Shown in pieces: positions 18,880-34,506 of a stretch of 64,000 nucleotides of DNA. Within the stretch, counting starts at the first letter, position 1, and the number at the start of each line of letters is the position of its first letter. Both the position numbers and the translations under genes were made by a program. Source of the DNA: Nitrospirota bacterium (GTDB taxonomy: Bacteria; Nitrospirota; UBA9217); the NCBI GenBank assembly GCA_963754875.1, contig CAVWHO010000020.1:256001-320000 (forward strand), read 5' to 3'. The notes under the pieces were generated by a model, which had not been told where the DNA came from, made no database searches, and saw only the letters and a list, made by a program, of their open reading frames with translations.

Positions 18880-19896
18880 TCAAGTCGATGAAAGTTTCAT
18901 CTCTCTCTTGCCCTGAATCCTGCTATCCTCAACGACACGGATTTTATCCAGCTTAAATTCTTTCATGAGTGATTTTATGTTTTCGCGCCGCTGACCTACG
19001 GCAAGAGAGATATCCTTGGGGTTTACGGAAAACTCTGCTGTAGTGTTTTCTCCTGTCCTCTTTTTCAGTGCAGACCGCATCTTATCCAGGAAAATTGCAG
19101 ACTCAACGAGCTGTCTAAAGGCAGGGTGAAAAGGGCCGGCAAGGATAGTACCCGGCTTCTCCAGCTCTTCCGTTGATTGCAGTCCTATTCGGATTACATC
19201 GATACCCGCGTGTTCAACTCTTATTACAGCATCTCGGCATAAGGCATACGGCCTCATCGAGTGTGAACGGCCGATATGATCCGTTTCTGTAAAGTTTTTC
19301 AAGCGGTGTGCCTTTGATTACGAGCACAGGATAGAGCCGGACGAAATCGGGTTTCATCGAATGACGGTGTCGATGGTCTTTCTGAAGAAAGTTATTTGCT
19401 CGTATCGCCCGGGAGGCCCGGCATGAGTTGAAGCCCGACTGTAAATTCATGCTCTTTAAGAAGCTTTTACCGCGTTTATCGTATCGTCTGCCGCTGTGAC
19501 CGCGACCGGCGTTGATCAATACGGTGTCATCCATGGATTGAGCGCCGAGTTCAATGACCGTAACATGATGCTCTTTGAGGAGTGATAGTATCTCCTTGCT
19601 GATGCAGTCAGGACGCGTGGAAAGCCTGATAGTGCGGACTCGTGCTGACTGAATAAAGGGACGGACGGTTTCGAGATAGGTTTGCTGTACTTCGAGTGGC
19701 AGAGCGGTAAAGCTTCCCCCGTAGAATGCAATTTCGACAGCGTTCAGCGGAACGATGAGTGCTTAAATAGCGATTGATCTTGTCAGGGATGGTTGATGCA
19801 TCATCGGGGTCGGTTCTGTCCCGTAATATTTTTCTGGTTGCAAAATACGCACTGATGCGGGCAACCGGAGTGGGGGATGAAGAAAGGGATGATCAT
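18880..19896 (-). CDS. Elp3/YhcC-like radical SAM protein (multiply frameshifted)
   Basis: Fragments in different frames: MIIPFFIPHSGCPHQCVFCNQ (CxxxCxxC), PDFVRLYPVLVIKGTPL, IRIGLQ..AGPFHPAFRQLVES. Confidence 0.8.
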
Positions 19897-19970
19897 GGGA
19901 ACAGTTGGCAGAAGAGAGTAGATAGGAGACAGGGGAGGAACTGGATTATTTCCCTGTACTCGTTTGCTGC

Positions 19971-20669
19971 CTACTGCTGTTTGTCTTCTCGAAGTCTTTC
20001 CAGCGCTTCTTTTGCCGCTTTCTGTTCGGCTTCCTTTTTGCTTTTGCCGATGCCGTGACCGTATACGTTTTCCTTTAACGGAAAGCTCGACTTCAAACTG
20101 TTTCTGGTGATCGGGGCCGGTCTCGGACACGATCCGGTATTCGGGAAGCTGCTTCAGCCGCTCTTGGCACAGTTCCTGGAGTTCGGTCTTGTAATCGAGC
20201 GTGCCGCGGGACGTGCAGGTTTTTTTAACCATCTCTTCGAAGAACCGGATGACGAATGCTTCCACAGCTGCATTGCCTGCATCGAGATAAATGGAGGCGA
20301 TGAGCGCTTCAAGACAGTTCGCGAGCAAGCGAGTCCTTGTCCCTTCCGCCGGTCTGTTCTTCTCCTTTGCCGAGCAGCAGGTAGCTGCCAAGACCGATTT
20401 CCCGGGCAACGGAGGCGAGGGCGGGCTCGCTCACGACAGCAGCGCGCAGCCGCGAGAGGTCGCCCTCGTTCGAATCGGGACAGTTTTTCATCAGGTATTG
20501 ACTGATCACGAGACCGAGAACGGCGTCGCCGAGGAACTCGAGCCGTTCGTTGTGGGCAGGAAACCCGGTTTTCGTTTGCAAAGGACTTGTGCGTCAGCGC
20601 CCGTTCGAGCAGTTCCGGGTCCTTGAACTGATGGGAAATCCGATGCTGCATGTCCGAAAGGGGCGGCAT
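19971..20669 (-). CDS. rnc: Ribonuclease III (frameshifted)
   Basis: [26 protein letters not shown] dsRBD, AEQKAA spread over several frames. Confidence 0.9.
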
Positions 20670-20670
20670 G

Positions 20671-21914
20671 TTATTTGCGGAAGCGTTTAAAGATCAGGCA
20701 CGCATTGGTGCCGCCGAAGCCGAAGGAATTCGACATAGCCACATCCACCTGCACGTGTCTCGCTTTATTGGGGATATAGTCCAGATCGCACTCTGGATCG
20801 GGGTTATCGAGGTTGATGGTCGGCGGCAGGACGCCGCGGTCCAAGGCCAGGACGGAGACAACGGCCTCGACGCCGCCGGCAGCGCCGAGCAGGTGGCCGG
20901 TCATGGATTTCGTGGAGCTGACCGGTATCTTATAGGCATAGTCGCCGAAGACGGTCTTGATGGCAATGCTTTCGAGCTCGTCGCCGTACTTCGTGGATGT
21001 GCCGTGTGCATTGATGTAGCCCATTTCCGTGGGAGCGATGCCTGCGTCCTTGATCGCCAGTTTCATGCACCGCGCGGCCCCTTCGCCGTTCGGAGCCGGG
21101 GAGGTTATGTGGTAGGCGTCTCCCGAGGCGCCGTAGCCGATCAGTTCCGCATGGATGCGCGCACCTCGCGCTATTGCGGACTCCATTTCTTCGAGGATCA
21201 ACGACGCCGGAGCCTTCGCCCATGATGAACCCGTCGCGGTCGGTGTCGAAGGGACGGCTTGCGCGCTGGGGCTCATTGTTCCGCGTGGACAGGGCCTTCA
21301 TGGCATTGAATCCGCCGACGCCGAGCGGGCAGATGCAGGACTCGGTGCCGCCGGCGATCATGGCATCGGCGTCTCCGCGCTCGATGGTCCTGAACGCTTC
21401 GCCGATGGAGTGGGTCCCCGTTGCACATGCCGTGACGACACAGATGTTAGGACCCTTGGCGCCGTAGCGGATGGAGAGTATCCCCGCAGCTTCATTGATG
21501 ATCAGCATGGGGATAAAGAAGGGGGTTATCTTGCGAAAACCCCGCTCGAGATAGACCTTGTGGTACTTTTCAATGGCAGGGAGTCCGCCCATGCCCGCGC
21601 TGACCATGACACCGACGCGCTCCGCATTCTCCTCGGTGATCTTGAGTCCCGCACGAGTCCATGGCCATCTGGCTTGCGGCTATCGCCAGATGAATAAAGC
21701 GGTCCATTTTTTTGATCTCTTTGAGCTCGATGTATTTCTCGGGCTCGAAGCCGTGGATCTCGCCTGCGATCTGCGTCGGAATATTCTTGTCCTCGAACTG
21801 CGTGATCGGGCCGATGCCCGACTTGCCGTTGATCAAGCCTTCCCAACTTGTTTCCGTATCAAGTCCGACCGGGGTGATCATCCCGATGCCGGTGACGACA
21901 ACTCTTCTTTTCAA
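20671..21914 (-). CDS. fabF: 3-oxoacyl-ACP synthase II (two frameshifts)
   Basis: RRVVVTG, TACATG catalytic Cys, [21 protein letters not shown]. Confidence 0.93.
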
Positions 21915-22041
21915 AAGAGGGTTCCTCCTGGATAAAAATCCGAAAAGCCAAAAAACCAGCCCCCGCTCGAGCGGAAGAGGTCTTCTGGCTTTTTGGAATT
22001 ATGGTTCCTGTAGTTTGTATTTCCGTTGCTGGAGAACGCCG

Positions 22042-22308
<267 letters not shown>

Positions 22309-22358
22309 TTAAGACTTGATTGATCGTGTATGGTGCGTTGTGAAAATCGATTACTCGT

Positions 22359-23099
22359 TTACATGTACATTCCGCCGTTCACGTGGATCACCTGGCCGGT
22401 GATATACGACGCCCACGGCGAGGCGAGGAACCTGACGGCATTTGCCACGTCCTGCGGCGTGCCGAGCTTGCCCATGGGAATCTGCTTCGCCAGCTCCTGC
22501 CTTACATTCTCGGACAGAGCCTGGGTCATGGCCGTATCGATGAAGCCCGGGGCAACGGCATTTGCCGTGATGCCTCGGTTCGCGTATTCACGGGCAATGG
22601 TCTTTGTCAGCCCGATGAGGCCGGCTTTGGAAGCTACATAGTTAGCCTGGCCGGCGTTCCCCATCGCGCCGACGATCGAGGCAATATTGATGATGGTTCC
22701 CGCACGCTGCTTGGACATGTACTTGAGTGCAGCCTTCGTGCAGAGGAACGAACCTTTCAGGTTGATGCTGAGCACCAGGTCCCAATCCTCATCCTTCATA
22801 CGGAGGATGAGGCCGTCGCGGGTGATGCCTGCATTATTCACCAGGATATCAATTCTGCCGAACTTTTCTATTACCTGGTCGATCATGGCCGTGACATCAG
22901 CGGAAGCGGCCACGTTCGCCTTGAGGGCCAGTGATTTTCTGCCTTTGGTCTCGATATCTCCGGCGGTTTTTTGTGCGGCATCGAGGTTAACATCGCAGAT
23001 GGCGACATCGGCGCCATCGTTCGCAAGAGCAAGGGCGATGTCCCTGCCGATCCCCTGGGCAGCTCCGGTGACGAGGGCGATTTTACCAGATAAGCTCAT
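22359..23099 (-). CDS. fabG: 3-oxoacyl-ACP reductase
   Basis: TGAAQGIG, NNAGITRD, YVASK, GFIDT. Confidence 0.95.
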   Translation of the reverse strand: MSLSGKIALVTGAAQGIGRDIALALANDGADVAICDVNLDAAQKTAGDIETKGRKSLALKANVAASADVTAMIDQVIEKFGRIDILVNNAGITRDGLILRMKDEDWDLVLSINLKGSFLCTKAALKYMSKQRAGTIINIASIVGAMGNAGQANYVASKAGLIGLTKTIAREYANRGITANAVAPGFIDTAMTQALSENVRQELAKQIPMGKLGTPQDVANAVRFLASPWASYITGQVIHVNGGMYM

Positions 23100-23217
23100 G
23101 AACTCCTCCAGAGACAATTCAAAGATCCAGCCATACTCCTCGCAGACATCCGAAAGGCAGATGCACGTCTTGAGTCAATTTCCTGGCGTCCTCTGTGTCG
23201 TTGCGAGAATTATACAG

Positions 23218-24150
23218 CTATATTCCCAGTGTGGTCAGTGTGTCGTTCATGCTCTTCTGGTCTTCGACATTCAGAATTTTTGCGTCTTTGGCGATCCGCC
23301 TGACAAGACCCGAGAGCACTTTGCCGGGGCCGATTTCAATAAAGGTGTCGCATCCGTCAGCTACCATCGCGCTGATTGAGTCTTCCCAGTACAGGGGAGC
23401 GCTGATCTGTTTGACGAGCGACGGCCTCAGCTCCGATGCCGTGCGCAGGAACTTGGCGTCGGCGTTGTTCACGATCGGGAAACGGAGGTCGCGAATCGTT
23501 GTTTTTTCCAGCTCCCGCGCAAGTGCGATGCCGGCCTGTTTCATCAAGGCACAGTGTGAGGGAACGCTTACCGCGAGAGGGATGACTTTTTTCGCCCCTC
23601 TGGATTTTGCAAGCTCCATCGCTTTTTCGACAGCAGCTGTTTCGCCGGCAATTACTATTTGGCCCGGAGTGTTGTAATTTGCAGGGGCAACTATACCATT
23701 TTTAGCAGCTTCAAGGCAAGTTTTTTCTACGTCCTGCCGGTCCATGCCCAGAATAGCGGCCATGAGTCCCGATCCCGCGGGAACTGCTTCCTGCATAAAT
23801 CGCCCTCTTTTTTGGACCAATGCCACGGCGTCTTTGAACTCGAAGCCATCTGCCGCGGTGATTGCCGTATATTCGCCGAGGCTGTGACCGGCTGCAGCCG
23901 CTGCCGTCAAACCTCTCCGTTCAAGAGGCTGCAAGATCGCCATACTCGCCGCCAGAATGGCAGGTTGTGTGTTTTCCGTGAGGTTCAGTTTTTCGACAGG
24001 GCCGTCTATGCACAGACGCGCAAGATCATACCCGAGCGCGGTACTTGCTCTGTCGAAAACTTCTTTGGATTCCGGGAAATTCTCTATAAATTCTTTTGCC
24101 ATCCCGACATACTGGGAACCCTGGCCGGGAAAGATGAATGCGATTTTCAT
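23218..24150 (-). CDS. fabD: Malonyl-CoA:ACP transacylase
   Basis: FPGQGSQ, GHSLGE, VSVPSH. Confidence 0.95.
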   Translation of the reverse strand: MKIAFIFPGQGSQYVGMAKEFIENFPESKEVFDRASTALGYDLARLCIDGPVEKLNLTENTQPAILAASMAILQPLERRGLTAAAAAGHSLGEYTAITAADGFEFKDAVALVQKRGRFMQEAVPAGSGLMAAILGMDRQDVEKTCLEAAKNGIVAPANYNTPGQIVIAGETAAVEKAMELAKSRGAKKVIPLAVSVPSHCALMKQAGIALARELEKTTIRDLRFPIVNNADAKFLRTASELRPSLVKQISAPLYWEDSISAMVADGCDTFIEIGPGKVLSGLVRRIAKDAKILNVEDQKSMNDTLTTLGI

Positions 24151-24270
24151 GAAGTATGACCTCGAAAAATCTTGAGCGCTGCAGTTTGTCGCAGCTTAAA
24201 GAGATAAAAGGCTACCGAGGGATAACCCGTATTCTTTGCTTTATCTGAAGACAAAAGAACTTGTATTCAG

Positions 24271-25461
24271 TTATCCCCGCATTTCCCGGATCTTCTTGAT
24301 CATAATCGGGACAACTTCGTGGACGTCACCGACGATGCCGTACGTAGCCACGTTAAAGATGGGCGCGTCAGGATCTTTGTTGATGGCCACAATCACTTCC
24401 GACGACTGCATGCCGGCAACGTGCTGGATAGCACCGGATATTCCGCAGGCAATATAGAGCTTAGGGCAAACGGTCTTGCCGGTCTGACCTACCTGGTGGG
24501 GATAGGGGACCCATCCTTCGTCAACAGCGCCTCTCGTCGCAGCAACGGCGCCGCCGAGCGCCTTGGCGAGTTCTGCAACAAGCTCGAAGTTTTTAGCGCT
24601 ACCCAAACCACGGCCTCCAGCCACGATAATATCGGCCTCACATATGTTCACCGTCTCTCCGATCTCTTCTATGGTTTTGATGACTTTGGTGCGGAGATCG
24701 CCGGACTGGGTATAGCGCACGTTAATAACGTCCCCGGTCCGGGAGTCGTTGTGCGGAGCTGGTTTCATGACCTTGTGTCTGACCGTTGCCATCTGCGGAC
24801 GGTGGTTCGGGGTTACAATGGTGGCCATAATGTTTCCGCCGAAGGCAGGCCGGGTCTGGTGGAGGTGGCCGGTTTCCGCATCAATATCGAGGGCCGTACA
24901 ATCGGCAGTCAACCCGGTGTACAGTGATGACGCAACTTTGGGGAAGAAGGAGCGGCCGATCGCTGTTGCGCCGGCAAGGATGACCTCCGGTTTATGTTGT
25001 TTCGCAAGCGTTGTCAGGACCGCAGCATAAGAATCGTCGTTGAAATCCTTGAGTGCCGGGTCGTCGGCAACATAGACAATGTCTGCGCCGTGGGCGATGA
25101 GATCCTGCACCTTGTCCTTGATGCCGTGACCGATGAACACGGCAGAGAGCTTTGTTTTCTTTTTGTCGGCGAGCTTCCTGCCCTCACCGAGGAGTTCCAG
25201 GGCCACGCTGGCGACGTCCCCTTTGTGTTGTTCTGCGAAGACCCACACGCCCTTGTAGGCTGACAGATCGGCAGCCGGCGCCGTAGCTTCGTCAATCTTC
25301 TCGATGGCTTTGAATTCGCAGACTTCAACGCAGGCCCCGCACATGGTGCAGGCCTCGGTTATGAATGCCTTGCCCTCTCGCATTTCGATTGCGCCGAAGG
25401 GGCAAGCCGTCACGCAGGTTTCGCAGGACGTGCACTTATCGGATATGACTCGAACGCTCAC
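24271..25461 (-). CDS. etfA: Electron transfer flavoprotein alpha subunit with N-terminal 2[4Fe-4S] ferredoxin domain (CarE-like)
   Basis: CTSCETCVTACP and CTMCGACVEVC; GLTADC, RPAFGG, QVGQTGK, GISGAIQH. Confidence 0.93.
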   Translation of the reverse strand: MSVRVISDKCTSCETCVTACPFGAIEMREGKAFITEACTMCGACVEVCEFKAIEKIDEATAPAADLSAYKGVWVFAEQHKGDVASVALELLGEGRKLADKKKTKLSAVFIGHGIKDKVQDLIAHGADIVYVADDPALKDFNDDSYAAVLTTLAKQHKPEVILAGATAIGRSFFPKVASSLYTGLTADCTALDIDAETGHLHQTRPAFGGNIMATIVTPNHRPQMATVRHKVMKPAPHNDSRTGDVINVRYTQSGDLRTKVIKTIEEIGETVNICEADIIVAGGRGLGSAKNFELVAELAKALGGAVAATRGAVDEGWVPYPHQVGQTGKTVCPKLYIACGISGAIQHVAGMQSSEVIVAINKDPDAPIFNVATYGIVGDVHEVVPIMIKKIREMRG

Positions 25462-25567
25462 GGGGAACTCCTTAAGCCAGAAGACAGATGTCAGAGGACA
25501 GATGACGGATTGTTACTCTCATCTTACGGTTTTGTCTGGTTTCTGAATCTCGCTTTTGTCATCTGTT

Positions 25568-26353
25568 TTAAATAAACGATTGCTCTTTCAACTTTGAAAT
25601 GACAGTAGTGATTTGATCTTCCATGCTCCCGGTCAGAACCTCTCGCTGGCCGCGGGCCGCGGGCGGGAATATTTTTACGACCTTCGTGGGAGAACCCTTG
25701 AGCCCGCATTTGCTGTCGTCGGCGCCGATATCCTTGGCGTTCCAGCTGGTTACCTTCAGGCTTTTGGCCTTCATCTTGCCCTTGAGAGAAGGTACGCGGG
25801 GTTGGTTGATTTCTTTTACAACCGTGATGAGCGCGGGAAGGGACGTTTCAACGACATCATATCCCTCGTCCATCAGCCGTTCAGCCAACATCTTTTTCCC
25901 CTCGATTTGTTCGATCTTCTTTATATACGCGACGAAGGGAATGCCGAGCATATCAGCAGTTTCCGGACCGACTTGCGCTGTGTCTCCATCGATTGCCTGT
26001 TTGCCGGCAATGATCAGGTCGTAATCAGCTATTTTCTTAATTCCCTGGGAAAGAGCATAGGACGTGGCCCAGGTATCCGCACCGGCAAATGCCCTATCGG
26101 AGAGGAGCACGACGTCGTCTACTCCGAGAGAAATGGCTTCTTTCAGCGCCTCAGCCGCCTGGGGCGGGCCCATGGTGACTGCGGTAACCTTGCCGCCGTG
26201 TTTTTCCCGAAGACGGAGAGCCTCTTCGATGGCATACATGTCAAAGGGGTTGATGATGCTCGGAACCCCGTCGCGGATAAGCGTGTTGGTCTCGCGGTTT
26301 ATTTTGACTTCCGATGTGTCCGGAACCTGTTTTACCAGGACGATGATGTTCAT
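25568..26353 (-). CDS. etfB: Electron transfer flavoprotein beta subunit
   Basis: KQVPD, DRAFAGADT, GKQAIDGDTAQVGP, GLKGSPT. Confidence 0.95.
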   Translation of the reverse strand: MNIIVLVKQVPDTSEVKINRETNTLIRDGVPSIINPFDMYAIEEALRLREKHGGKVTAVTMGPPQAAEALKEAISLGVDDVVLLSDRAFAGADTWATSYALSQGIKKIADYDLIIAGKQAIDGDTAQVGPETADMLGIPFVAYIKKIEQIEGKKMLAERLMDEGYDVVETSLPALITVVKEINQPRVPSLKGKMKAKSLKVTSWNAKDIGADDSKCGLKGSPTKVVKIFPPAARGQREVLTGSMEDQITTVISKLKEQSFI

Positions 26354-26419
26354 GTATCCAATCCTTTTCTACGAAAGCACGAAGGGGTTTTTTTGACTTA
26401 ACGACTCTGTGCTGATTTT

Positions 26420-27577
26420 TTATTTCGTTCTTGTAGCTTCCTTAATCATGTCCAGCGCGACAACATTGCGCTGGATCTGGTTCGTGCCCTCGTAAATCTG
26501 GAGGATCTTGGCATCGCGCATCATTTTTTCGACCGGGTATTCCTTCATATATCCCGAACCGCCCATGACCTGGACCGCATCGGTGGTTACTTTCATCGCC
26601 ACATCGGTGGCAAACAGCTTGGCCATGGCCGAGGCGCGTGAAACGTCTTTTGCCCCGCTGTCGATAAAGCGCGCAACGGAATATACGAGAGAGCGTGCGG
26701 CTTCGGTTTGGGTTTGCATGTCGGCAAGCATGTGCTGGACGGCCTGGAACGAGGTGATCGGCTGGCCGAACTGGACCCGTTGCTTTGCAAATTTGATCGC
26801 TTCGTCAATGGCCCCCTGCGCAACACCTACGCCCTGGGCGCCCACACCCGTGCGGGAGCTATCGAGTGTCTTCATGGCAACGATGAACCCCATGCCTTCC
26901 TTGGCAATAATGTTTTCCTTAGGGATGCGGCAATTGTTGAAAATGAGTTCCGTGGTAGATGAAGCCCGAATGCCCATTTTGTTTTCCTTCTTGCCGAAGG
27001 TGAAGCCCGGCGTGCCCTTTTCCACGATGAATGCCGATGCGCCACGCGGACCTTTTGACCTGTCGGTGATTGCGATAACCGTGTAAATATCGGCTTCACC
27101 ACCGTTCGTGATCCACTGTTTGGTGCCGTTCAGTACGTACTCGCTGCCATCGAGCTTTGCCGTAGTCTGTACACCGCTGGCATCGCTGCCGGCGTTGGCC
27201 TCTGTTAGTCCGAAGGCCACGAGTTTCTTACCAGTCGCGATGTTGGGAAGATATTTTTTCTTCTGGGCGTCGGTGCCGTGGAGCAAGATGGGATACGTGC
27301 CGAGCGCATTGGCGGCATAGCTCGTCGAAACGCCCACACAGGCCTTGGAGAGCTCTTCTACGGCGATACAGAGTTCGAGGGATTGCTTGCCCAGCCCGCC
27401 ATATTCCTCGGGAATAAAGATGCCGAAGAGATCGGCCTGAGCCAGGGCTTTCATGATGTCGGTCGGAAATTTGTTCTGTTCATCGAGCTCGGCGCGAACG
27501 GGAACGATCTTTTCCACGGCTATCTGCCGGGCAAGGTCGCGTATCATGATCTGTTCTTCTGTCAGCAAATAGTCCAT
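26420..27577 (-). CDS. Acyl-CoA dehydrogenase, butyryl-CoA dehydrogenase/CarC-like
   Basis: LTEANAGSD, KQWITNG, KMGIR, IYEGTNQIQR with catalytic Glu. Confidence 0.93.
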   Translation of the reverse strand: MDYLLTEEQIMIRDLARQIAVEKIVPVRAELDEQNKFPTDIMKALAQADLFGIFIPEEYGGLGKQSLELCIAVEELSKACVGVSTSYAANALGTYPILLHGTDAQKKKYLPNIATGKKLVAFGLTEANAGSDASGVQTTAKLDGSEYVLNGTKQWITNGGEADIYTVIAITDRSKGPRGASAFIVEKGTPGFTFGKKENKMGIRASSTTELIFNNCRIPKENIIAKEGMGFIVAMKTLDSSRTGVGAQGVGVAQGAIDEAIKFAKQRVQFGQPITSFQAVQHMLADMQTQTEAARSLVYSVARFIDSGAKDVSRASAMAKLFATDVAMKVTTDAVQVMGGSGYMKEYPVEKMMRDAKILQIYEGTNQIQRNVVALDMIKEATRTK

Positions 27578-27632
27578 TAAATCCTCCGCACGGTATCAAC
27601 AATTAATAATCTCAAATATATTTTTTCTTGCG

Positions 27633-28616
27633 TTACCAACGTACAAGAGCTGAAGCCCACGTCAGTCCTCCACCGAATGCTTCAAAAAGGAGGAGATGAT
27701 TTTCTTTAATTTTGCCGCTCCGGACCGCTTCGTCAAGGGCCATGGGGATGGAAGCGGCCGAGGTATTGCCGTATTTAGGAAGTGTCAGCACAACTTTTTC
27801 CATTGGCATATTGAGACGTTGTGCCATGGCTTGAATGATCCGCAGGTTCGCCTGGTGAGGAACGAGGAAGTCGATCTCTTCCGCTTTTACCTTGTTATAC
27901 TCCAGTGCTTCCTGGACGACGCCCTCAAGAGCCCTCACCGCGGCTTTGAACGTTTCATTGCCTTTCATCTTTATAAAATGCATGCGTTTATGGATTGTTT
28001 CGTGAGAGGTCTGGGTTCTGTGCTCCGCCGCCGGGAACATGGATCAAGGTTTCCCTGCGAACCGTCGGAATGGATGTGAGTGGAGAGAATGCCGCGCTTG
28101 CCCGTGTGCCGTTGGATGACTGCCGCACCTGCGCCGTCTCCGAAGAGAATGCAGGTCGAGCGATCCTCCCAGTCCGTATACCGCGACAGGACCTCGGCAC
28201 CGACGAGCAGGATGTTTTTATACATTTCAGATTTGATGTATGCGCTTGCAACGGACATCCCGTAGATAAAGCCTGAACAGGCGGCATAGATATCGAAGGC
28301 AGCGGCTTTTCGTGCCCCGAGTCTTTCCTGGAGCACGCACCCCAAGCTCGGCAGGATCATGTCCGGTGTCATGGTTGCTACTATGATAAGATCGATTTCT
28401 TCAGCGGCGAGCCCCGCGGCTTTGAGGGCTTTTTTGCTCGCTTCATAGGCAAGGTCCGATGTGGTCTGTCCCTTTTCCTGCGATCCTGCGCTCTTTAATG
28501 CCTGTTCGCTCGGTGATCCATTCGTCGGTGGTGTCAATAAGCTTTTCCAGATCCTGGTTCGTAATAATTTTTTTAGGTGCAAAGGATCCGGTTCCTGTTA
28601 TTCGTGCGTGAATCAT
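27633..28616 (-). CDS. fabH: 3-oxoacyl-ACP synthase III (frameshifted)
   Basis: ITGTGSF.P, AACSGF catalytic Cys, FGDGAGA, PHQAN, GNTSAAS. Confidence 0.93.
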
Positions 28617-29626
28617 TTAGTTCTCGTCAGCTCCATATTCTTTTCAATGTCCTCATGAATGTGTTTATTAACCTCGCTCTTGGCAAGCTCGGCGGCGACA
28701 CGAATCGCGTTCTTGATCGCCCGTCGGACGAGCGGCCGTGGCTGATGATGCTGATGCCGTTGATGCCCACGAGTGGTGCGCCGCCGTATTCCGCATAGTC
28801 GACCCGGCGTTTGAGCGAATCGAACGCCGGCCGCATTAACAGATAACCGAGTTTTCGCACCAGGCTCTTGCCGATACCCTCGCGGATAAAGAGGCCTATG
28901 GCTTCGACAACGGATTCGGAGACCTTGAGCACGACGTTCCCGACAAATCCGTCGCAGACGATCACATCGGCGTTGCCGGACATAACATCACGGCCCTCGA
29001 CGTTTCCGATGAAATTAAGCGAGGTCTCGGTCAGGAGTTTGAAAGCTTCCTTGGTCAGTTCGTTCCCTTTGGTTTCCTCCTCCCCGATGGAAAGGAGCCC
29101 CACACGGGGATTTGGAATTCTTAACAGATACTTCGCGTAGACTTCGCCCATAATGGCGAATTGCAAGAGGTGGTTTGGCTTGCAGTCCACGTTCGCGCCC
29201 ATATCGAGGATAATGGACGTGCCTTTAGTGGTCGGCATGAAGGTGGCAATGGCAGGCCGTTCCACGCCCTCAACCGACCCCAGAACAAAGAGCGAGGTTG
29301 CCATGGCTGCGCCGGTATGTCCCGCACTGATCACGGCGACTGCCTCTCCGTTTTTGACGAGATCGTTGGCCACCCGGATGGACGAATTTTTTTTCCTGCG
29401 AAAGACCGTAGCAGGCGAATCGAGCATGTCCACGACTTCGGCGGCATTTTGAATCTCTATGGGAAGCGTTTTTGCTTGAGGGTGCTTGTCTAATTCTGCC
29501 CGGACAATCTGTTCGATACCGACCAGGATTATCCCGACCTCCGTACTCCATTGCAGCCTGCACGGCACCTGCGATGACGGCATGCGGCGCGTTGTCCCCC
29601 CCCATTGCATCAACGGCAATCTTCAT
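28617..29626 (-). CDS. plsX: Phosphate acyltransferase (frameshifted)
   Basis: MKIAVDAMGGD, DMGANVD, GNVEGRD, DGFVGN, ISHGRS. Confidence 0.93.
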
Positions 29627-29705
29627 TCAGACTCCCTACAATATAAAAGGCAAAGGGTCATACGGAAAAACAGTATCATCCCTTTGCCTTCGAACATGCT
29701 TCTGA

Positions 29706-29891
29706 CTATATCTGCTGAACAGTCATGACCTCACGGCCGTTATAGGTGCCGCAGGACAGACAGGCATGATGAGGCTGTTTGACCTCCTGACACTGCGGGC
29801 AGACCGTCAGGTTCGGGGCCATGAGTTTTTGTTTTTCTGTGCGTCTCTTGTCCCTGCGGGACTTGGAATGTCTGTGTTTTGGATTTGCCAT
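29706..29891 (-). CDS. rpmF: 50S ribosomal protein L32
   Basis: MANPKHRHSKSRRDKRR..CPQC..H.AC.SCGTY. Confidence 0.95.
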   Translation of the reverse strand: MANPKHRHSKSRRDKRRTEKQKLMAPNLTVCPQCQEVKQPHHACLSCGTYNGREVMTVQQI

Positions 29892-29908
29892 TTTTAGTAA
29901 TACTCCTT

Positions 29909-30426
29909 CTATTTTTTTAATAAATCCTTTAAAGCGGCAAAAGCACCGAAATCTCCCGGCCCACTCTGCTGGTGACCGCATTGCGTTTTGTTCAGATCCG
30001 TTCCGCAGACGCTGCAGAGCCCCTTGCATTCAGGATTGTGAAGCGGGACCATGGGGACGGCGATGAGCAACTGCTCCTTTACAATACTCGATCGGCTCGA
30101 TTTCATCGCCTTGATAGAACTCTATGTCGAGTTCTCCGGAAACCAGCTCATGCTCCGGCGCCGCACCAAGCGAATTGACCGGGGCCAGGTCAACGAGTCA
30201 ATTCGTTGTCTATCTTATAAGGAAAGCTTATCAGGCAACGGCTGCATTCAAGAACGGCAGTTGCCTGTACTCGCCCTGAAATATGGAGGATGCCTCTTCC
30301 TTCCGGTTTGATTCGCAGATCCGCTGTAAACTCCGCGATGTCAGCGCCCTTGTCGAACAAATCGAGCTTCTGCGCAAGCTCCAGGGTAAGCCCCTCTGGC
30401 GGTATGTCGTTGATTTTGATAGCCAT
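29909..30426 (-). CDS. yceD: YceD/DUF177 protein (frameshifted)
   Basis: ECSRCL and CKGLC..CG.DLN motifs; canonical position upstream of rpmF. Confidence 0.85.
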
Positions 30427-30457
30427 TTCTTTTTATTACCGGGGCTGTAAGATTGGA

Positions 30458-30486
30458 ATTATATAGAGACAGCCATGTTTTGTCAA
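30458..30486 (-). promoter_or_regulatory. Consensus sigma70 promoter of the yceD-fab operon
   Basis: Minus strand TTGACA-17 bp-TATAAT. Confidence 0.8.
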
Positions 30487-30743: not shown

Positions 30744-31420
30744 ATGAGAACAAAATTGCTGCTTCTGTTCGGTCTTTGTTGCTTCCTTTGTTTTTGTTGT
30801 CGGCACAACACGGCTATGCAGCCATCTATAAGTATTTAGACAAGGACGGTGTGATCTGTTTTGCAAACGATCTCCAGTCCATTCCTGAACAGTTCCGTGC
30901 GAACGCTAAAGTCGTGAGTGACGATACAGATCAGGAGAACCAACAATCGATGCATAACCAGCAGATACCAGGACAGACCAACGGGAAATCACGAGGATGT
31001 TCCCCCGGAATAGCCCATAATAGGGCAGTCGATACTCGGAATGAAAATAGTTTTTTCAATAATCGCATGCTTCTTACGGCAATTGTCGTTGTGAGCGCCG
31101 GCTTCGCTTTTATTATTCTGGGGATGCTTGAGACTGATCACAAAAAAACGATTGCGTCGTTCGCGTAACTCTTCTGTGGGCAGTAGCGCTCTATCTTCTC
31201 ATTGCGCATGCCGGCGACGCGCTTCGTATGATTCGAACATTCGGCGGTACAAGTCGACGAGGTGAAGCACCAGTCTGAGGAAAAAGGAAAGAAGGCCGCA
31301 AAAGCCGATAAAAGCCATGAGGACAATTTGTGGAACAGGTCGGACAGGCTTCCTCAACCGATATTCCGGAAGACAGTTCGAGAGAAAAAAGAGTAGAGTG
31401 TACGTGCAAGATCAATTGTT
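30744..31420 (+). CDS. DUF4124-domain exported/membrane protein (frameshifted; end approximate)
   Basis: Signal peptide then AIYKYLDKDGVICFANDLQSIPEQFR; AGGAGG RBS. Confidence 0.55.
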
Positions 31421-32797
31421 TTCAGTAACCTCTCGGATGGAAGCGTAAATGACTTGCAGCGCGCGATTCAGTTCCTTCAAGGATATTGAAAGCGGAGGCA
31501 TGAGTACGATCACATTGCCAAGCGGCCGGATGATGAGACCCCGCTTCCGACATTCAACAATGACCTTGATCCCGATTTTGCTTTCCGCGGGATAGGGTTC
31601 CTTCGTCAACCTGTTTTTTACCAGTTCGATGCCAACCATGAGACCTTTCTGTCTGACCTCACCCACGTGTTCCAGTGCTTTGAACTGTTTTAAGCCTTTT
31701 GCTAATTCGGTTATCTTTGGCTGAATTTTCGAGAGGATATTCTCCTTTCGATACAGGTCGATGCTGGCGATTGCGGAAGCGCAGGCGAGCGGGTTGCCGG
31801 TGTAGGTGTGGCCATGGAAAAAGGTCCTGAACTCCCGGTATTCACCCAGGAAGCCGCCGTAGATGTCGTCGGTCGTGAGCGTGGCCGCAAGCGGAAGGTA
31901 ACCGCCGGTGATTCCTTTGGCTATGCACAGGATGTCGGGTGCGACTCGTTCATGTTCGCAGGCGAACATTTTTCCTGTTCTGCCAAAACCGGTCGCGACC
32001 TCATCCGCGATCATTAAGACATTGTATTTCGTACACAGTTCCCGGATTTTCTTCAGATAGCCCGGCGGCTGCATGAGCATGCCGGCAGCACCCTGTACGA
32101 GGGGTTCGATGATCAGCGCAGCGGTCACCGAGGCATATTTCTGGATCGTTCTTTCGGCGTGCACAAAACAGGTGTTCTGGCATTCCGGGTAGTTTAGTCC
32201 ATACTTGCAGCGATAACAGTGCGGCGACTCGATCTTGTAGGTCTGGAAGAGGAGCGGTTTATACATCCGGTGGAAGAGATTCATCCCCCCCACGCTTACT
32301 GACCCGATAGTGTCACCGTGATATGCTTCAGTGAATGAAATGAATCCCGTCTTTTTTTGATATGGGGCGCCCTTCTGCTGCCAATATTGAAACGATATCT
32401 TCAGGGCGATCTCCACGGAAGTGGAACCGCTGTCGGAATAGAAAACCTTCGTAAGGCCTTTCGGCGCGATCTTAATCAGTTTTTGTGCCAGGCGTACAGC
32501 AGGGATATTCGACAGCCCGAGCATGGTGGAGTGGCTGATTTTTTTAAGCTGCATTGCAACGGCAGCATCAATCTCTTTTTTACGGTGGCCATGGACCGTG
32601 ACCCAGAGCGAGGAGACGCCGTCAATATAGTGTTTGCCGTGAATGTCGGTGAGTGTGCACCCTTTGCCGCTCTCGATAATAATCTGTTTCTCTTTTCCCC
32701 AGTCCTGCATCTGGGTGAAAGGGTGCCAGATATATTTTTTATCCAGCGTTTCCAACTCCTGTGCGGCTTGTTGTTTTTTGGAGCGTTGATGCGCCAC
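31412..32797 (-). CDS. bioA: Adenosylmethionine-8-amino-7-oxononanoate aminotransferase
   Basis: IWHPFTQM, DSGSTSVEIALK, YHGDT, DEVATGFGRTG, AKGITGG, HGHTYTGN. Confidence 0.95.
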   Translation of the reverse strand: MAHQRSKKQQAAQELETLDKKYIWHPFTQMQDWGKEKQIIIESGKGCTLTDIHGKHYIDGVSSLWVTVHGHRKKEIDAAVAMQLKKISHSTMLGLSNIPAVRLAQKLIKIAPKGLTKVFYSDSGSTSVEIALKISFQYWQQKGAPYQKKTGFISFTEAYHGDTIGSVSVGGMNLFHRMYKPLLFQTYKIESPHCYRCKYGLNYPECQNTCFVHAERTIQKYASVTAALIIEPLVQGAAGMLMQPPGYLKKIRELCTKYNVLMIADEVATGFGRTGKMFACEHERVAPDILCIAKGITGGYLPLAATLTTDDIYGGFLGEYREFRTFFHGHTYTGNPLACASAIASIDLYRKENILSKIQPKITELAKGLKQFKALEHVGEVRQKGLMVGIELVKNRLTKEPYPAESKIGIKVIVECRKRGLIIRPLGNVIVLMPPLSISLKELNRALQVIYASIREVTENN

Positions 32798-32844: not shown

Positions 32845-32872
32845 ATTATAGTTCGAACGCATTTTTTGTCAA
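32845..32872 (-). promoter_or_regulatory. Sigma70 promoter for bioA
   Basis: Minus strand TTGACA-16 bp-TATAAT. Confidence 0.65.
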
Positions 32873-32997
32873 TAATAAAAAGGCTTGAAAACTCTCACTT
32901 CTTTCTGGTAAGATAACATGATCGGGAAGAAAACATGCAAATCCATGCCGCGGCGAAACCTTTTTCCCCAACCAACCCGGGAGGTTTATTCGTAATC

Positions 32998-34506
32998 ATG
33001 CTCAATAAAAAGAAATTTTATCTATCCGCAGCCTTTATACTTGTTCTGGGCGTGTTTGTAGGCCTTGTATTGTCATCGCATATCGGTATCATGTCGCCGC
33101 TGCCGGCAAAGAGCCAGTTATCGGCTAAATCGGTAGACCTCCTGACACAGCTCAGCGACGCACAGTCCGAGGTCGCAGCGGTTGCTACACCATCGGTTGT
33201 GAATATTTCCACAACGAGGGTGATCAAGTCGCGAGAAGAAGTGCCGTTCGATCTTTTCGACGATCCGTTCTTCAGGAGATTTTTCGGTGACCAGTTCCCC
33301 CACCCCAATGCACCGAAAGAACACAAGGAGCAGAGCCTGGGTTCCGGTGTAATCGTGTCTGAAGACGGCTATATCGTAACGAACAACCACGTGATAGAAA
33401 AGGCCCAGGAGATAAAAGTACTTCTCTTAAACAAGAAGGACTATGATGCCAAACTTGTGGGCGCTGACCCGAAAACCGATATCGCCGTCATTAAAATCGA
33501 TGCCAAAGGGTTGCCCGCGCTGCCATGGGGCGATTCCAATAAATTGAAAGTGGGCGAGATAGTGTTCGCGGTCGGAAACCCATTCGGACTTAACCAGACA
33601 GTAACGAGAGGGATCATCAGCGCTGTCGGACGGGCCAATGTGGGCATTGCTGATTACGAGGACTTCATCCAAACCGATGCGGCCATCAATCCCGGAAATT
33701 CCGGCGGCGCCCTCGTCAACGCCCGGGGTGAGCTGATCGGCATCAATACCGCGATCCTTTCTCGGACCGGCGGCTATCAGGGCATCGGATTCGCCGTGCC
33801 GAGCAGCATGGCGCGGCAGGTGATGGACAGTCTCGTAAAATATAAAAAAGTGGTGCGCGGCTGGCTCGGTGTCAGCATCCAGGAAGTCACGTCCGATCTT
33901 GCCGAGGAGTTCGGCGTCAAAGACTTGAAAGGCGCGCTTGTGAGCGGCGTGATGAAGGGAAGTCCGGCGGAAAAGGCGGGGATAAAGCAGGGAGACGTGA
34001 TACTTCAGTATAATGGCAAGGTCATTGAGGACACGGGACATCTGAGGAATATGGTCTCCCAAACACCGATCGGCACAACGGTAAAAGTAAAAGTTCTCCG
34101 ACAGAAGAAGGAAATCGAACTGGACGTCACCATTGTCGAACTGCCGAAAAAGCTGGCCGAGGCATCGACGTCGACGGGTCAGGAAGAACACGGCAAGGCG
34201 ACGAATGAGGGAGAAAGTACGGCCTTGGCCGGGCTGGTTGTTCATCAGCTGACGCCGGACCTCGCGCGGCGATTCGGTTATGATGAAAATGAAAATGGTG
34301 TCGTCGTCGTCAAAGTGGAAACCGACAGTAAGATCGCCGAAGCAGGGATCAAACCCGGAGATATCATCCTTCAGATTAACCAAAAAAATGTGGCTACGAT
34401 AGAAGAATTCAAGAAGATGTCATCAAAGATAAAAGCAAAAGAGAGACTCCTGTTTCTTATTCGCAGGAAGGGGCAAGACCTGTTTGTAACTGTCAAGCCT
34501 GAATAA
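32998..34506 (+). CDS. degQ: DegQ/DegP (Do) periplasmic serine protease with two PDZ domains
   Basis: LGSGVI, TNNHV, DIAV, INPGNSGG, RGWLGV. Confidence 0.93.
   Translation: MLNKKKFYLSAAFILVLGVFVGLVLSSHIGIMSPLPAKSQLSAKSVDLLTQLSDAQSEVAAVATPSVVNISTTRVIKSREEVPFDLFDDPFFRRFFGDQFPHPNAPKEHKEQSLGSGVIVSEDGYIVTNNHVIEKAQEIKVLLLNKKDYDAKLVGADPKTDIAVIKIDAKGLPALPWGDSNKLKVGEIVFAVGNPFGLNQTVTRGIISAVGRANVGIADYEDFIQTDAAINPGNSGGALVNARGELIGINTAILSRTGGYQGIGFAVPSSMARQVMDSLVKYKKVVRGWLGVSIQEVTSDLAEEFGVKDLKGALVSGVMKGSPAEKAGIKQGDVILQYNGKVIEDTGHLRNMVSQTPIGTTVKVKVLRQKKEIELDVTIVELPKKLAEASTSTGQEEHGKATNEGESTALAGLVVHQLTPDLARRFGYDENENGVVVVKVETDSKIAEAGIKPGDIILQINQKNVATIEEFKKMSSKIKAKERLLFLIRRKGQDLFVTVKPE

Follow-up and report, generated by a model that had tools for sequence, protein, structure and literature searches.

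A 64,000-nucleotide stretch of Nitrospirota DNA (the window: positions 256001-320000 of contig C20 in the assembly G000, which comprises 4.3 Mb and is 90% complete) carries three genes, acd-etfB-etfA, embedded in an operon for fatty-acid synthesis and encoding a flavoprotein of the acyl-CoA dehydrogenase (ACAD) fold and the two subunits of an electron-transfer flavoprotein (ETF). Genes of this type serve fermenting bacteria in energy conservation. The module is real and conserved, and it very probably belongs to fatty-acid synthesis. Judged from its sequences, context and distribution, the Acd-EtfB-EtfA complex is probably the housekeeping enoyl-acyl carrier protein (enoyl-ACP) reductase of type II fatty-acid synthesis (FAS II) in these anaerobes. 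With less confidence, the evidence also leans towards this reduction being combined with electron bifurcation.

In the window the genes yceD-rpmF-plsX-fabH-acd-etfB-etfA-fabD-fabG-acpP-fabF-rnc all lie on the minus strand. The insertion of acd-etfB-etfA between fabH and fabD with short gaps, as originally described, was confirmed throughout in the sequence, the spacers fabH/acd, acd/etfB, etfB/etfA and etfA/fabD measuring 55, 66, 106 and 120 nt. A role of the module in the enoyl reduction of FAS II, suggested in the original prediction, is supported by synteny, by the lack of a canonical reductase in G000 and by mutual exclusion with known reductases in Nitrospirota.

The exclusion was examined in 131 Nitrospirota genomes of 24 families, consisting of G000 and 130 others at least 95% complete. 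The Acd profile matched 74 of them; two (G030 and G155) were dropped because their proteins are generic ACADs of about 45% identity which fall outside the Acd clade in the tree, so that 72 carriers from 14 families remained. At E below 1e-60, canonical FabI is present in 45 genomes of seven families, none of them a carrier. FabK above its cut-off is present in G030 and G091, both non-carriers, and in one non-carrier it is the only known reductase, while a FabL-like short-chain dehydrogenase/reductase (SDR) occurs in 13 genomes (12 of family f16, and G155), again with no carrier among them. All 72 carriers thus lack canonical FabI, FabK and the FabL-like SDR, and all 59 non-carriers have one of these (45 FabI, one FabK only and 13 FabL-like), so that the anticorrelation with known reductases proposed earlier as a check is complete in 131 of 131 genomes. 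As the module is found just in genomes without the known last-step reductases, it likely performs that step. Both the complementary distribution and the operon slot that are characteristic of enoyl-ACP reductases are therefore seen for the module in Nitrospirota. Weaker FabI matches were found in G130 and G158. The former is a carrier whose FabI-like gene is divergent and lies apart in an acp-fabF cluster, and the G158 gene, located between fabH and fabD, is FabL-like (best family FabL, 158 of 328 bits). Such SDRs, all below the FabL cut-off (L189:6853-7665 in G158, L191-L202, and G155:C5:6640-7446), mark the 13 Nitrospirota genomes that have neither FabI, FabK nor the Acd module, and likely represent an unannotated subfamily of enoyl-ACP reductases.

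The absence of fabI, fabK, fabL and fabV, first noted for the window, extends to the whole G000 assembly. FabI and FabL were not among the best families in an NCBIfam scan of the eight best of 11 PF13561 matches, that is, the FabG of the window and the next seven; the remaining three are the weakest, partial and with E values of 1e-9 or worse. FabK was not found among the seven PF03060 matches (five proteins scanned), and as candidates for FabK these were rejected, the proteins being IMPDH, two ThiE, PyrD and HisF. A tblastn search of the assembly with E. coli FabI and with FabK, FabX-like and FabL-like queries gave matches at the level of FabG only. FabV was found neither in G000 nor in any of 60 genomes searched, without a positive control. 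Two FabZ-like genes are present in G000.

The position of the module is conserved, as the original prediction had asked to be verified. An Acd orthologue (72-100% identity, two in pieces) occurs in 28 of 41 genomes, and 26 of the 28 loci show the order fabH-acd-etfB; in the two exceptions (G027 and G036) acd stands alone, with etfB-etfA still directly before fabD. In G012 (90% complete) the orthologue, EtfA, FabI and FabK were all not found. Among the best 80 of 588 relatives from a species-level collection, a fab gene lies within 7 kb of acd in 38 loci, which belong to Nitrospirota, Actinomycetota, Desulfobulbaceae, Margulisiibacteriota, Omnitrophota and Planctomycetia and display at least five gene orders (fabH-acd-etfBA-fabD, fabH-acd-etfBA-fabG, plsX-acd-etfBA-fabG, fabF-acd-etfB-x-etfA and fabF-rnc-acd-etfBA). 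In L087 and L098 acd follows plsX with no intervening fabH. When 30 Margulisiibacteriota fabD loci were chosen regardless of the module, etfA was found directly before fabD in 15 and at a distance of one or four kb ahead of it in two more, fabH stood directly before fabD in seven, and neither applied in six. That fabK takes this slot in Margulisiibacteriota lacking the module was not borne out: none of the seven fabH-fabD loci (of 30) showed fabK there in a search limited to the slot. In sister lineages of the Nitrospirota carriers the slot has other occupants: the order is fabH-fabK-fabD in G025, G034 and G030, and in each of the 12 loci fetched for the FabL-like SDR this gene is flanked by fabH and fabD.

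Carriers apparently need no CoA-linked pathway alongside Acd. In three genomes of one to three contigs and 99-100% completeness (G112, G120 and G140) the orthologue is the only ACAD, and neither crotonase nor 3-hydroxyacyl-CoA dehydrogenase was found. The NMO family yielded nothing in these three beyond 490-residue, IMPDH-sized matches, and each has two SDRs, FabG and one unlike FabI/FabL (second SDR scanned in G120). Acd is likewise the only ACAD in G027 and G036, where crotonase and thiolase were not found, nor, in G036, 3-hydroxyacyl-CoA dehydrogenase. One crotonase-family gene each is present in G026 and G035, the latter also having a thiolase, and G143 has a second ACAD adjoining a 3-hydroxyacyl-CoA dehydrogenase. 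The lack of CoA-pathway partners in the closed genomes argues against primer supply or beta-oxidation, and the supply of primers for FabH, the second role envisaged in the original prediction, is weakened by closed genomes in which Acd is retained while crotonase, 3-hydroxyacyl-CoA dehydrogenase and, as far as tested, thiolase are missing. G000 contains, at G000:C11:43471-55500 (L250), a frameshifted second ACAD, a thiolase, a crotonase-domain protein and a distant EtfAB. This cluster, probably a beta-oxidation unit apart from the fab module, provides G000 with a separate CoA-linked cluster. A 2642-codon frame at G000:C16:92210-100135 (L249:4211-12136) comprises an N-terminal FAD oxidoreductase, the middle and C-terminal parts of an ACAD and C-terminal ETF-alpha domains; many relatives have frames of similar size (about 2640-2690 codons) that contain this ACAD piece, and the G000 frame looks like a fused Fix/Etf-ACAD polyprotein.

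Acd has the N-terminal, middle and C-terminal Pfam domains of the ACAD superfamily, to which it belongs, and scores under every NCBIfam equivalog cut-off. Its best match in the PDB is the butyryl-CoA dehydrogenase (Bcd) of C. difficile (5OL2) with 427 bits, versus 327 for CarC, which is only 20th among the PDB matches; identity to butyryl-CoA dehydrogenases is about 53% (C. difficile and A. fermentans closest), and the structure model (pLDDT 92) gives a TM score of 0.95 to Bcd. The catalytic glutamate of the YEGT motif, Glu363 in IYEGT, is present in 65 of 65 aligned rows. The acryloyl-CoA reductase AcrABC is the top NCBIfam family for Acd and EtfA, yet all three subunits remain below its cut-offs (478/640, 243/475 and 364/600 bits). 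No match of Acd, EtfB or EtfA to FabI, FabL, FabV or FabK was obtained in NCBIfam and Pfam scans, and acd-type genes are currently annotated as butyryl-CoA or AidB-like dehydrogenases. The closest relatives of Acd among the matches listed are from Nitrospirota (87-97% identity). In a tree obtained by a quick search, 59 Acd sequences group together at the end of a long stem, apart from four other ACADs (SH-aLRT 100), with 66-97% identity between phyla; a tight clade of such high identity across phyla is as expected for a housekeeping enzyme.

Residues 55-125 of Acd align without gaps with medium-chain enzymes (query 1-63 equals 1EGC 66-128). Bcd, SCAD, IVD and CarC require one extra residue there, helix E of Acd being one residue shorter and in the register of medium-chain acyl-CoA dehydrogenase (MCAD). 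By the medium-chain offset, Ser84 and Ala88 correspond to MCAD positions 95 and 99, which we take to be the Gln and Glu that close the cavity and are glycines in VLCAD. Position 84 is S, A, G or T and position 88 is Ala in all 65 rows, a hint only that the pocket would suit long chains. Small-for-large replacements lengthen the accepted chain in another ACAD pair (PMC11890623). Basic residues, considered here as a candidate docking patch for ACP, are conserved at K/R173 (58/65), K/R175 (64/65), R178 (65/65), K/R236 (63/65) and K/R379 (65/65); CoA-type relatives have similar ones, and a basic patch specific to the Acd clade could not be shown from a comparison of the 65 rows with those relatives.

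Both EtfB motifs on which the original prediction drew, DRAFAGADT (residues 86-94) and GKQAIDGDTAQVGP (117-130), are present, and with D122-G123-D124-T125-A126-Q127 the window EtfB has the loop typical of bifurcating (group 2) ETFs. Its best PDB match is CarD (6FAH, 7e-82), canonical ETFs reaching about 1e-27. EtfA matches CarE (6FAH) over its full length (1e-125), and its N-terminal 2[4Fe-4S] domain was verified by two CxxCxxCxxxC motifs and Pfam Fer4. Among proteins extracted from the loci, some of which overlap, DGDTAQ occurs in 78 of 80 EtfB and DGDT[AG]Q in all 80, and both cysteine motifs in 48 of 50 EtfA. DGDTAQ has been described as characteristic of bifurcating ETFs and the EtfA arginine as having no diagnostic value (PMC8958531), and Gly123 (A. 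fermentans numbering) as invariant in bifurcating ETFs (PMC12630350). EtfB and EtfA are accordingly predicted to form a bifurcating-type ETF with a fused ferredoxin domain, bifurcation itself being a prediction.

In the mechanism proposed, a hydride from NADH would be transferred to the EtfB flavin, as suggested by DGDTAQ and by homology to CarD and Bcd-Etf. As in CarCDE, one of the two electrons would arrive at the flavin of Acd by way of that of EtfA, and the second would reach ferredoxin (Fd) through the fused 2[4Fe-4S] domain. After two rounds Acd would reduce the trans-2-enoyl-ACP made by FabZ, with the observed Glu363 as putative proton donor. The reductive direction is presumed, and the suggestion that ACP is the carrier comes from gene context and distribution only. 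The net reaction would be 2 NADH + enoyl-ACP + 2 Fd(ox) -> acyl-ACP + 2 NAD+ + 2 Fd(red), in analogy to the CarCDE reaction as given in PMC5861303. Full-text searches, with subscription papers and supplements outside their scope, found no description of an ACAD-ETF as enoyl-ACP reductase or within a fab operon.

Several observations weigh against a general role as enoyl-ACP reductase. The 131 genomes in 24 families are kin, so their exclusion pattern reflects few independent events, and it is confounded with an anaerobic lifestyle. Moreover, the exclusion is complete within Nitrospirota but not absolute outside this phylum. Of the 80 cross-phylum genomes 50 were tested further (27 fab-linked and 23 unlinked, with no completeness figures), and neither canonical FabI nor FabK above its cut-off was found in any of the 27 fab-linked ones. 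The Desulfobulbaceae genome G074, nevertheless, combines a fab-embedded module with a FabL above the NCBIfam cut-off; G086 and G087 of the same group have similar FabL-type genes, all three have, within a specialised cluster, a FabI-like gene that is divergent, and the fab-linked G055 and G065 have FabK-like genes under the cut-off (260 and 320 bits). Among the 23 unlinked genomes, canonical FabI is present in five and canonical FabK in two, six of these seven falling in one clostridial subclade in the tree. An NMO-family match under the FabK cut-off, mostly FabX-like, is found in 52 of the 72 Nitrospirota carriers. In addition, acd is distant from fab genes in 22 of the 80 loci, all from Nitrospirota (a further 20 unlinked loci belong to other groups, with some truncated at contig ends), the basic residues by the substrate entrance are common to CoA-dependent relatives too, and the FabV searches lacked a positive control. 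These counter-examples, together with the four-way partition, the FabL-like slot occupant, the partner-free closed genomes and the exclusion of the FabX-like protein, are additions of the present analysis.

In the clostridial subclade (L093, L095, L097, L100, L108, L117 and L122) acd-etfB-etfA is free-standing in varied neighbourhoods, and most of the genomes concerned have FabI or FabK; the module may be redundant there or serve a different function. The Desulfobulbaceae cluster (L158, G087:C3:2577000-2586000; L156 and L157) encodes FabG, a FabZ-like and the divergent FabI-like protein, two phytoene-dehydrogenase-like proteins, a FabH/OleA-like protein, a hydrolase and an AMP-ligase, and is, by these labels from open reading frames, a specialised lipid pathway. 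The FabX-like protein searched is closest to H. pylori FabX, and those examined carry the four FabX cysteines; H. pylori FabX is an O2-requiring dehydrogenase/isomerase (PMC8626469). A number of fab operons from anaerobes, some containing the Acd module and others not, have a four-cysteine FabX-like gene flanked by acpP and fabF (L085, L111, L114, L233-L239, L245 and L246). An NMO-family FabX-like gene was not found in 20 of the 72 carriers, including all 10 of family f15, and can therefore not encode the general reductase; as a universal reductase the FabX-like protein was rejected, being absent from family f15 and from the closed genomes.

The assignment as enoyl-ACP reductase also encompasses a rather unlikely variant in which the module reduces enoyl-ACP without strict bifurcation in vivo, using NADH alone or reduced ferredoxin via the Fe-S domain. 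The signatures indicate a second FAD site rather than coupling, canonical ETFs share the conserved EtfA arginine, and the clostridial acryloyl-CoA reductase AcrABC, whose family ranks first for Acd and EtfA, is not known to bifurcate. Against this variant, nearly all copies retain DGDTAQ with Gly123 and a ferredoxin domain of the CarE type, and the enoyl-thioester potential of about -10 mV versus -320 mV for NADH provides the same driving force as for Bcd. It is quite improbable that the module instead makes short or branched acyl-CoA primers for FabH while another, unrecognised enzyme reduces enoyl-ACP. The similarity of Acd to butyryl-CoA dehydrogenases, with CoA-type entrance motifs kept, its usual position directly after fabH and the thiolases and crotonases of G000 itself are in line with such a function. 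Crotonase and 3-hydroxyacyl-CoA dehydrogenase are, however, missing in G112, G120, G140 and G036, and thiolase in G027 and G036; fabH is not adjacent in L087 and L098, and primer supply leaves unexplained why every carrier lacks, and every non-carrier has, a known reductase.

A further proposal, which we consider very improbable, is that the FabX-like [4Fe-4S] protein of the NMO family is the real reductase, or has the Etf as its electron acceptor in unsaturated fatty-acid synthesis, with Acd in a side role. An NMO-family match in 28 of 28 family members as well as in most carriers, and the presence of such a gene, flanked by acpP and fabF, in several operons that carry the module, would agree with this. 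Yet the gene is absent in 10 of 10 genomes of family f15 and in the closed G120, G140 and G143, was not found in G000, and is present in genomes having FabI or FabK and in operons that lack the module, too; its product resembles the H. pylori dehydrogenase/isomerase with an Fe-S domain replacing the NAD(P)H site of FabK. Finally, there is a small likelihood that the module is a unit of energy metabolism or acyl-thioester oxidation merely co-regulated with fab, its distribution tracking an anaerobic lifestyle. Bifurcating Etfs are mostly confined to anaerobes, the clostridial copies are unlinked and found alongside FabI or FabK, and the independent events are few; but such a unit would hardly be inserted repeatedly at differing points of the fab operon or kept as the sole ACAD without partner pathway enzymes, and this reading would leave the carriers without a recognisable means of completing an elongation cycle.

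Compared to known systems, an enoyl-ACP reductase of this kind would work like Bcd-Etf or CarCDE and by context be a member of neither, and would constitute a new class. It shares with CarCDE of Acetobacterium woodii (6FAH) the gene order ACAD-EtfB-EtfA, the 2[4Fe-4S] EtfA and the best PDB match of both Etf subunits, but its Acd is nearer to Bcd than to CarC, and it is surrounded by fab genes and not by a caffeate pathway. Bcd-EtfAB of C. difficile (5OL2) and A. fermentans (4L1F/4KPU) provides the best sequence and fold matches of Acd, the catalytic motif and the bifurcating Etf signature; in contrast, Acd forms a separate clade with the shorter helix E and a ferredoxin-fused EtfA, and carriers need no thiolase, crotonase or hbd, although such partners are present elsewhere in G000. 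With FabI, FabL and FabV (SDR fold) and FabK (FMN TIM barrel) the module has in common the proposed reaction, the complementary distribution and, for FabK and the FabL-like SDR, the slot, whereas its fold is unrelated and it is a three-subunit FAD/Fe-S complex with predicted ferredoxin coupling in place of a single-polypeptide type. The prolyl-PCP/ACP dehydrogenases RedW, PigA and AnaB (4IRN) as well as MbtN illustrate that the ACAD fold can use carrier-bound thioesters; these are distant (far below cut-off), oxidative and devoted to secondary metabolism, and are not known to have a dedicated bifurcating Etf. H. pylori FabX resembles the module as a flavin and Fe-S enzyme at the acyl-ACP/enoyl-ACP step and differs in being of the NMO fold, oxidative and O2-dependent (PMC8626469), and FabX-like genes are separate in many carriers.

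Table 1. Features of the fab operon region, in window coordinates.
Feature	Position	Strand	Basis
sigma70-type promoter-like site, TTGACA-17-TATAAT, 5' of yceD	30458..30486	-	12/12 consensus match; predicted
rpmF (ribosomal protein L32)	29706..29891	-	sequence and match to rpmF in related loci
plsX, end approximate, broken by single-base indels in assembly	28617..29626	-	sequence, related loci
fabH, three frames from single-base indels, likely assembly errors	27633..28616	-	NCBIfam fabH on two pieces
acd, ACAD-fold flavoprotein, 385 aa, proposed enoyl-ACP reductase subunit	26420..27577	-	Pfam
etfB, bifurcating-type ETF small subunit, 261 aa	25568..26353	-	PDB matches
DGDTAQ codons (EtfB 122-127), bifurcating-ETF signature incl. 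Gly123	25973..25990	-	sequence
etfA, 396 aa; N-terminal 2[4Fe-4S] ferredoxin domain ~25299-25461	24271..25461	-	Pfam, CarE match
fabD, malonyl-CoA:ACP transacylase	23218..24150	-	TIGR00128 above cut-off
fabG, 3-oxoacyl-ACP reductase	22359..23099	-	TIGR01830 above cut-off
acpP, acyl carrier protein, DSL motif	22042..22284	-	sequence
terminator-like hairpin between acpP and fabF	21960..21977	-	predicted; stronger of two hairpins
fabF, two single-base indels split frame in assembly	20671..21914	-	sequence, related loci

As to transcription, the consensus promoter proposed for the operon does match at all 12 positions, but it may not be the single signal, as a 10/12 promoter-like site before fabG (23238-23209) and two hairpins, a weak one between etfA and fabD (24228-24209) and the one in Table 1, are also predicted. 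Such signals are in modest excess over shuffled sequences (16 promoter sites versus 10.4±3.6, and 27 terminators versus 19.8±4.0). The frames of acd, etfB, etfA, fabD, fabG and acpP are intact, while yceD, plsX, fabH, fabF and rnc are broken by single-base indels (those of fabH near 28010, 28046 and 28477 by comparison with the close relative L092, in which all five genes are uninterrupted) that are probably assembly errors. The many such indels in housekeeping genes at 19800-30430 relative to L092 indicate an error-prone assembly, and apparent pseudogenes there are therefore to be doubted. Beyond the operon, a BioA-like aminotransferase gene, as read from the sequence, lies on the minus strand at 31412-32797 with a second 12/12 promoter match upstream (32845-32872), divergent from the gene of a DegP/HtrA-like protease at 32935-34506.

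On balance, though by no means firmly, the module appears to represent a widespread class, composed of an ACAD fold and a ferredoxin-fused bifurcating ETF, that would serve as the sole FAS II reductase in anaerobes of many phyla, and the first case of a core lipid-building pathway bifurcating on a carrier-bound substrate. The energy gain per cell would probably be small, with about seven reductions per C16 chain, and the interest is therefore mechanistic and evolutionary. If the assignment is true, it corrects the annotation of these genes, whose butyryl-CoA or AidB-like labels can mislead metagenome studies toward butyrate or fatty-acid metabolism, and adds a new fold to the enoyl-ACP reductases. 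It would also fill a pathway hole in 72 of 131 Nitrospirota genomes and in many other genomes of anaerobic phyla, and electron bifurcation would then reach from catabolism into lipid anabolism and onto ACP-bound substrates.

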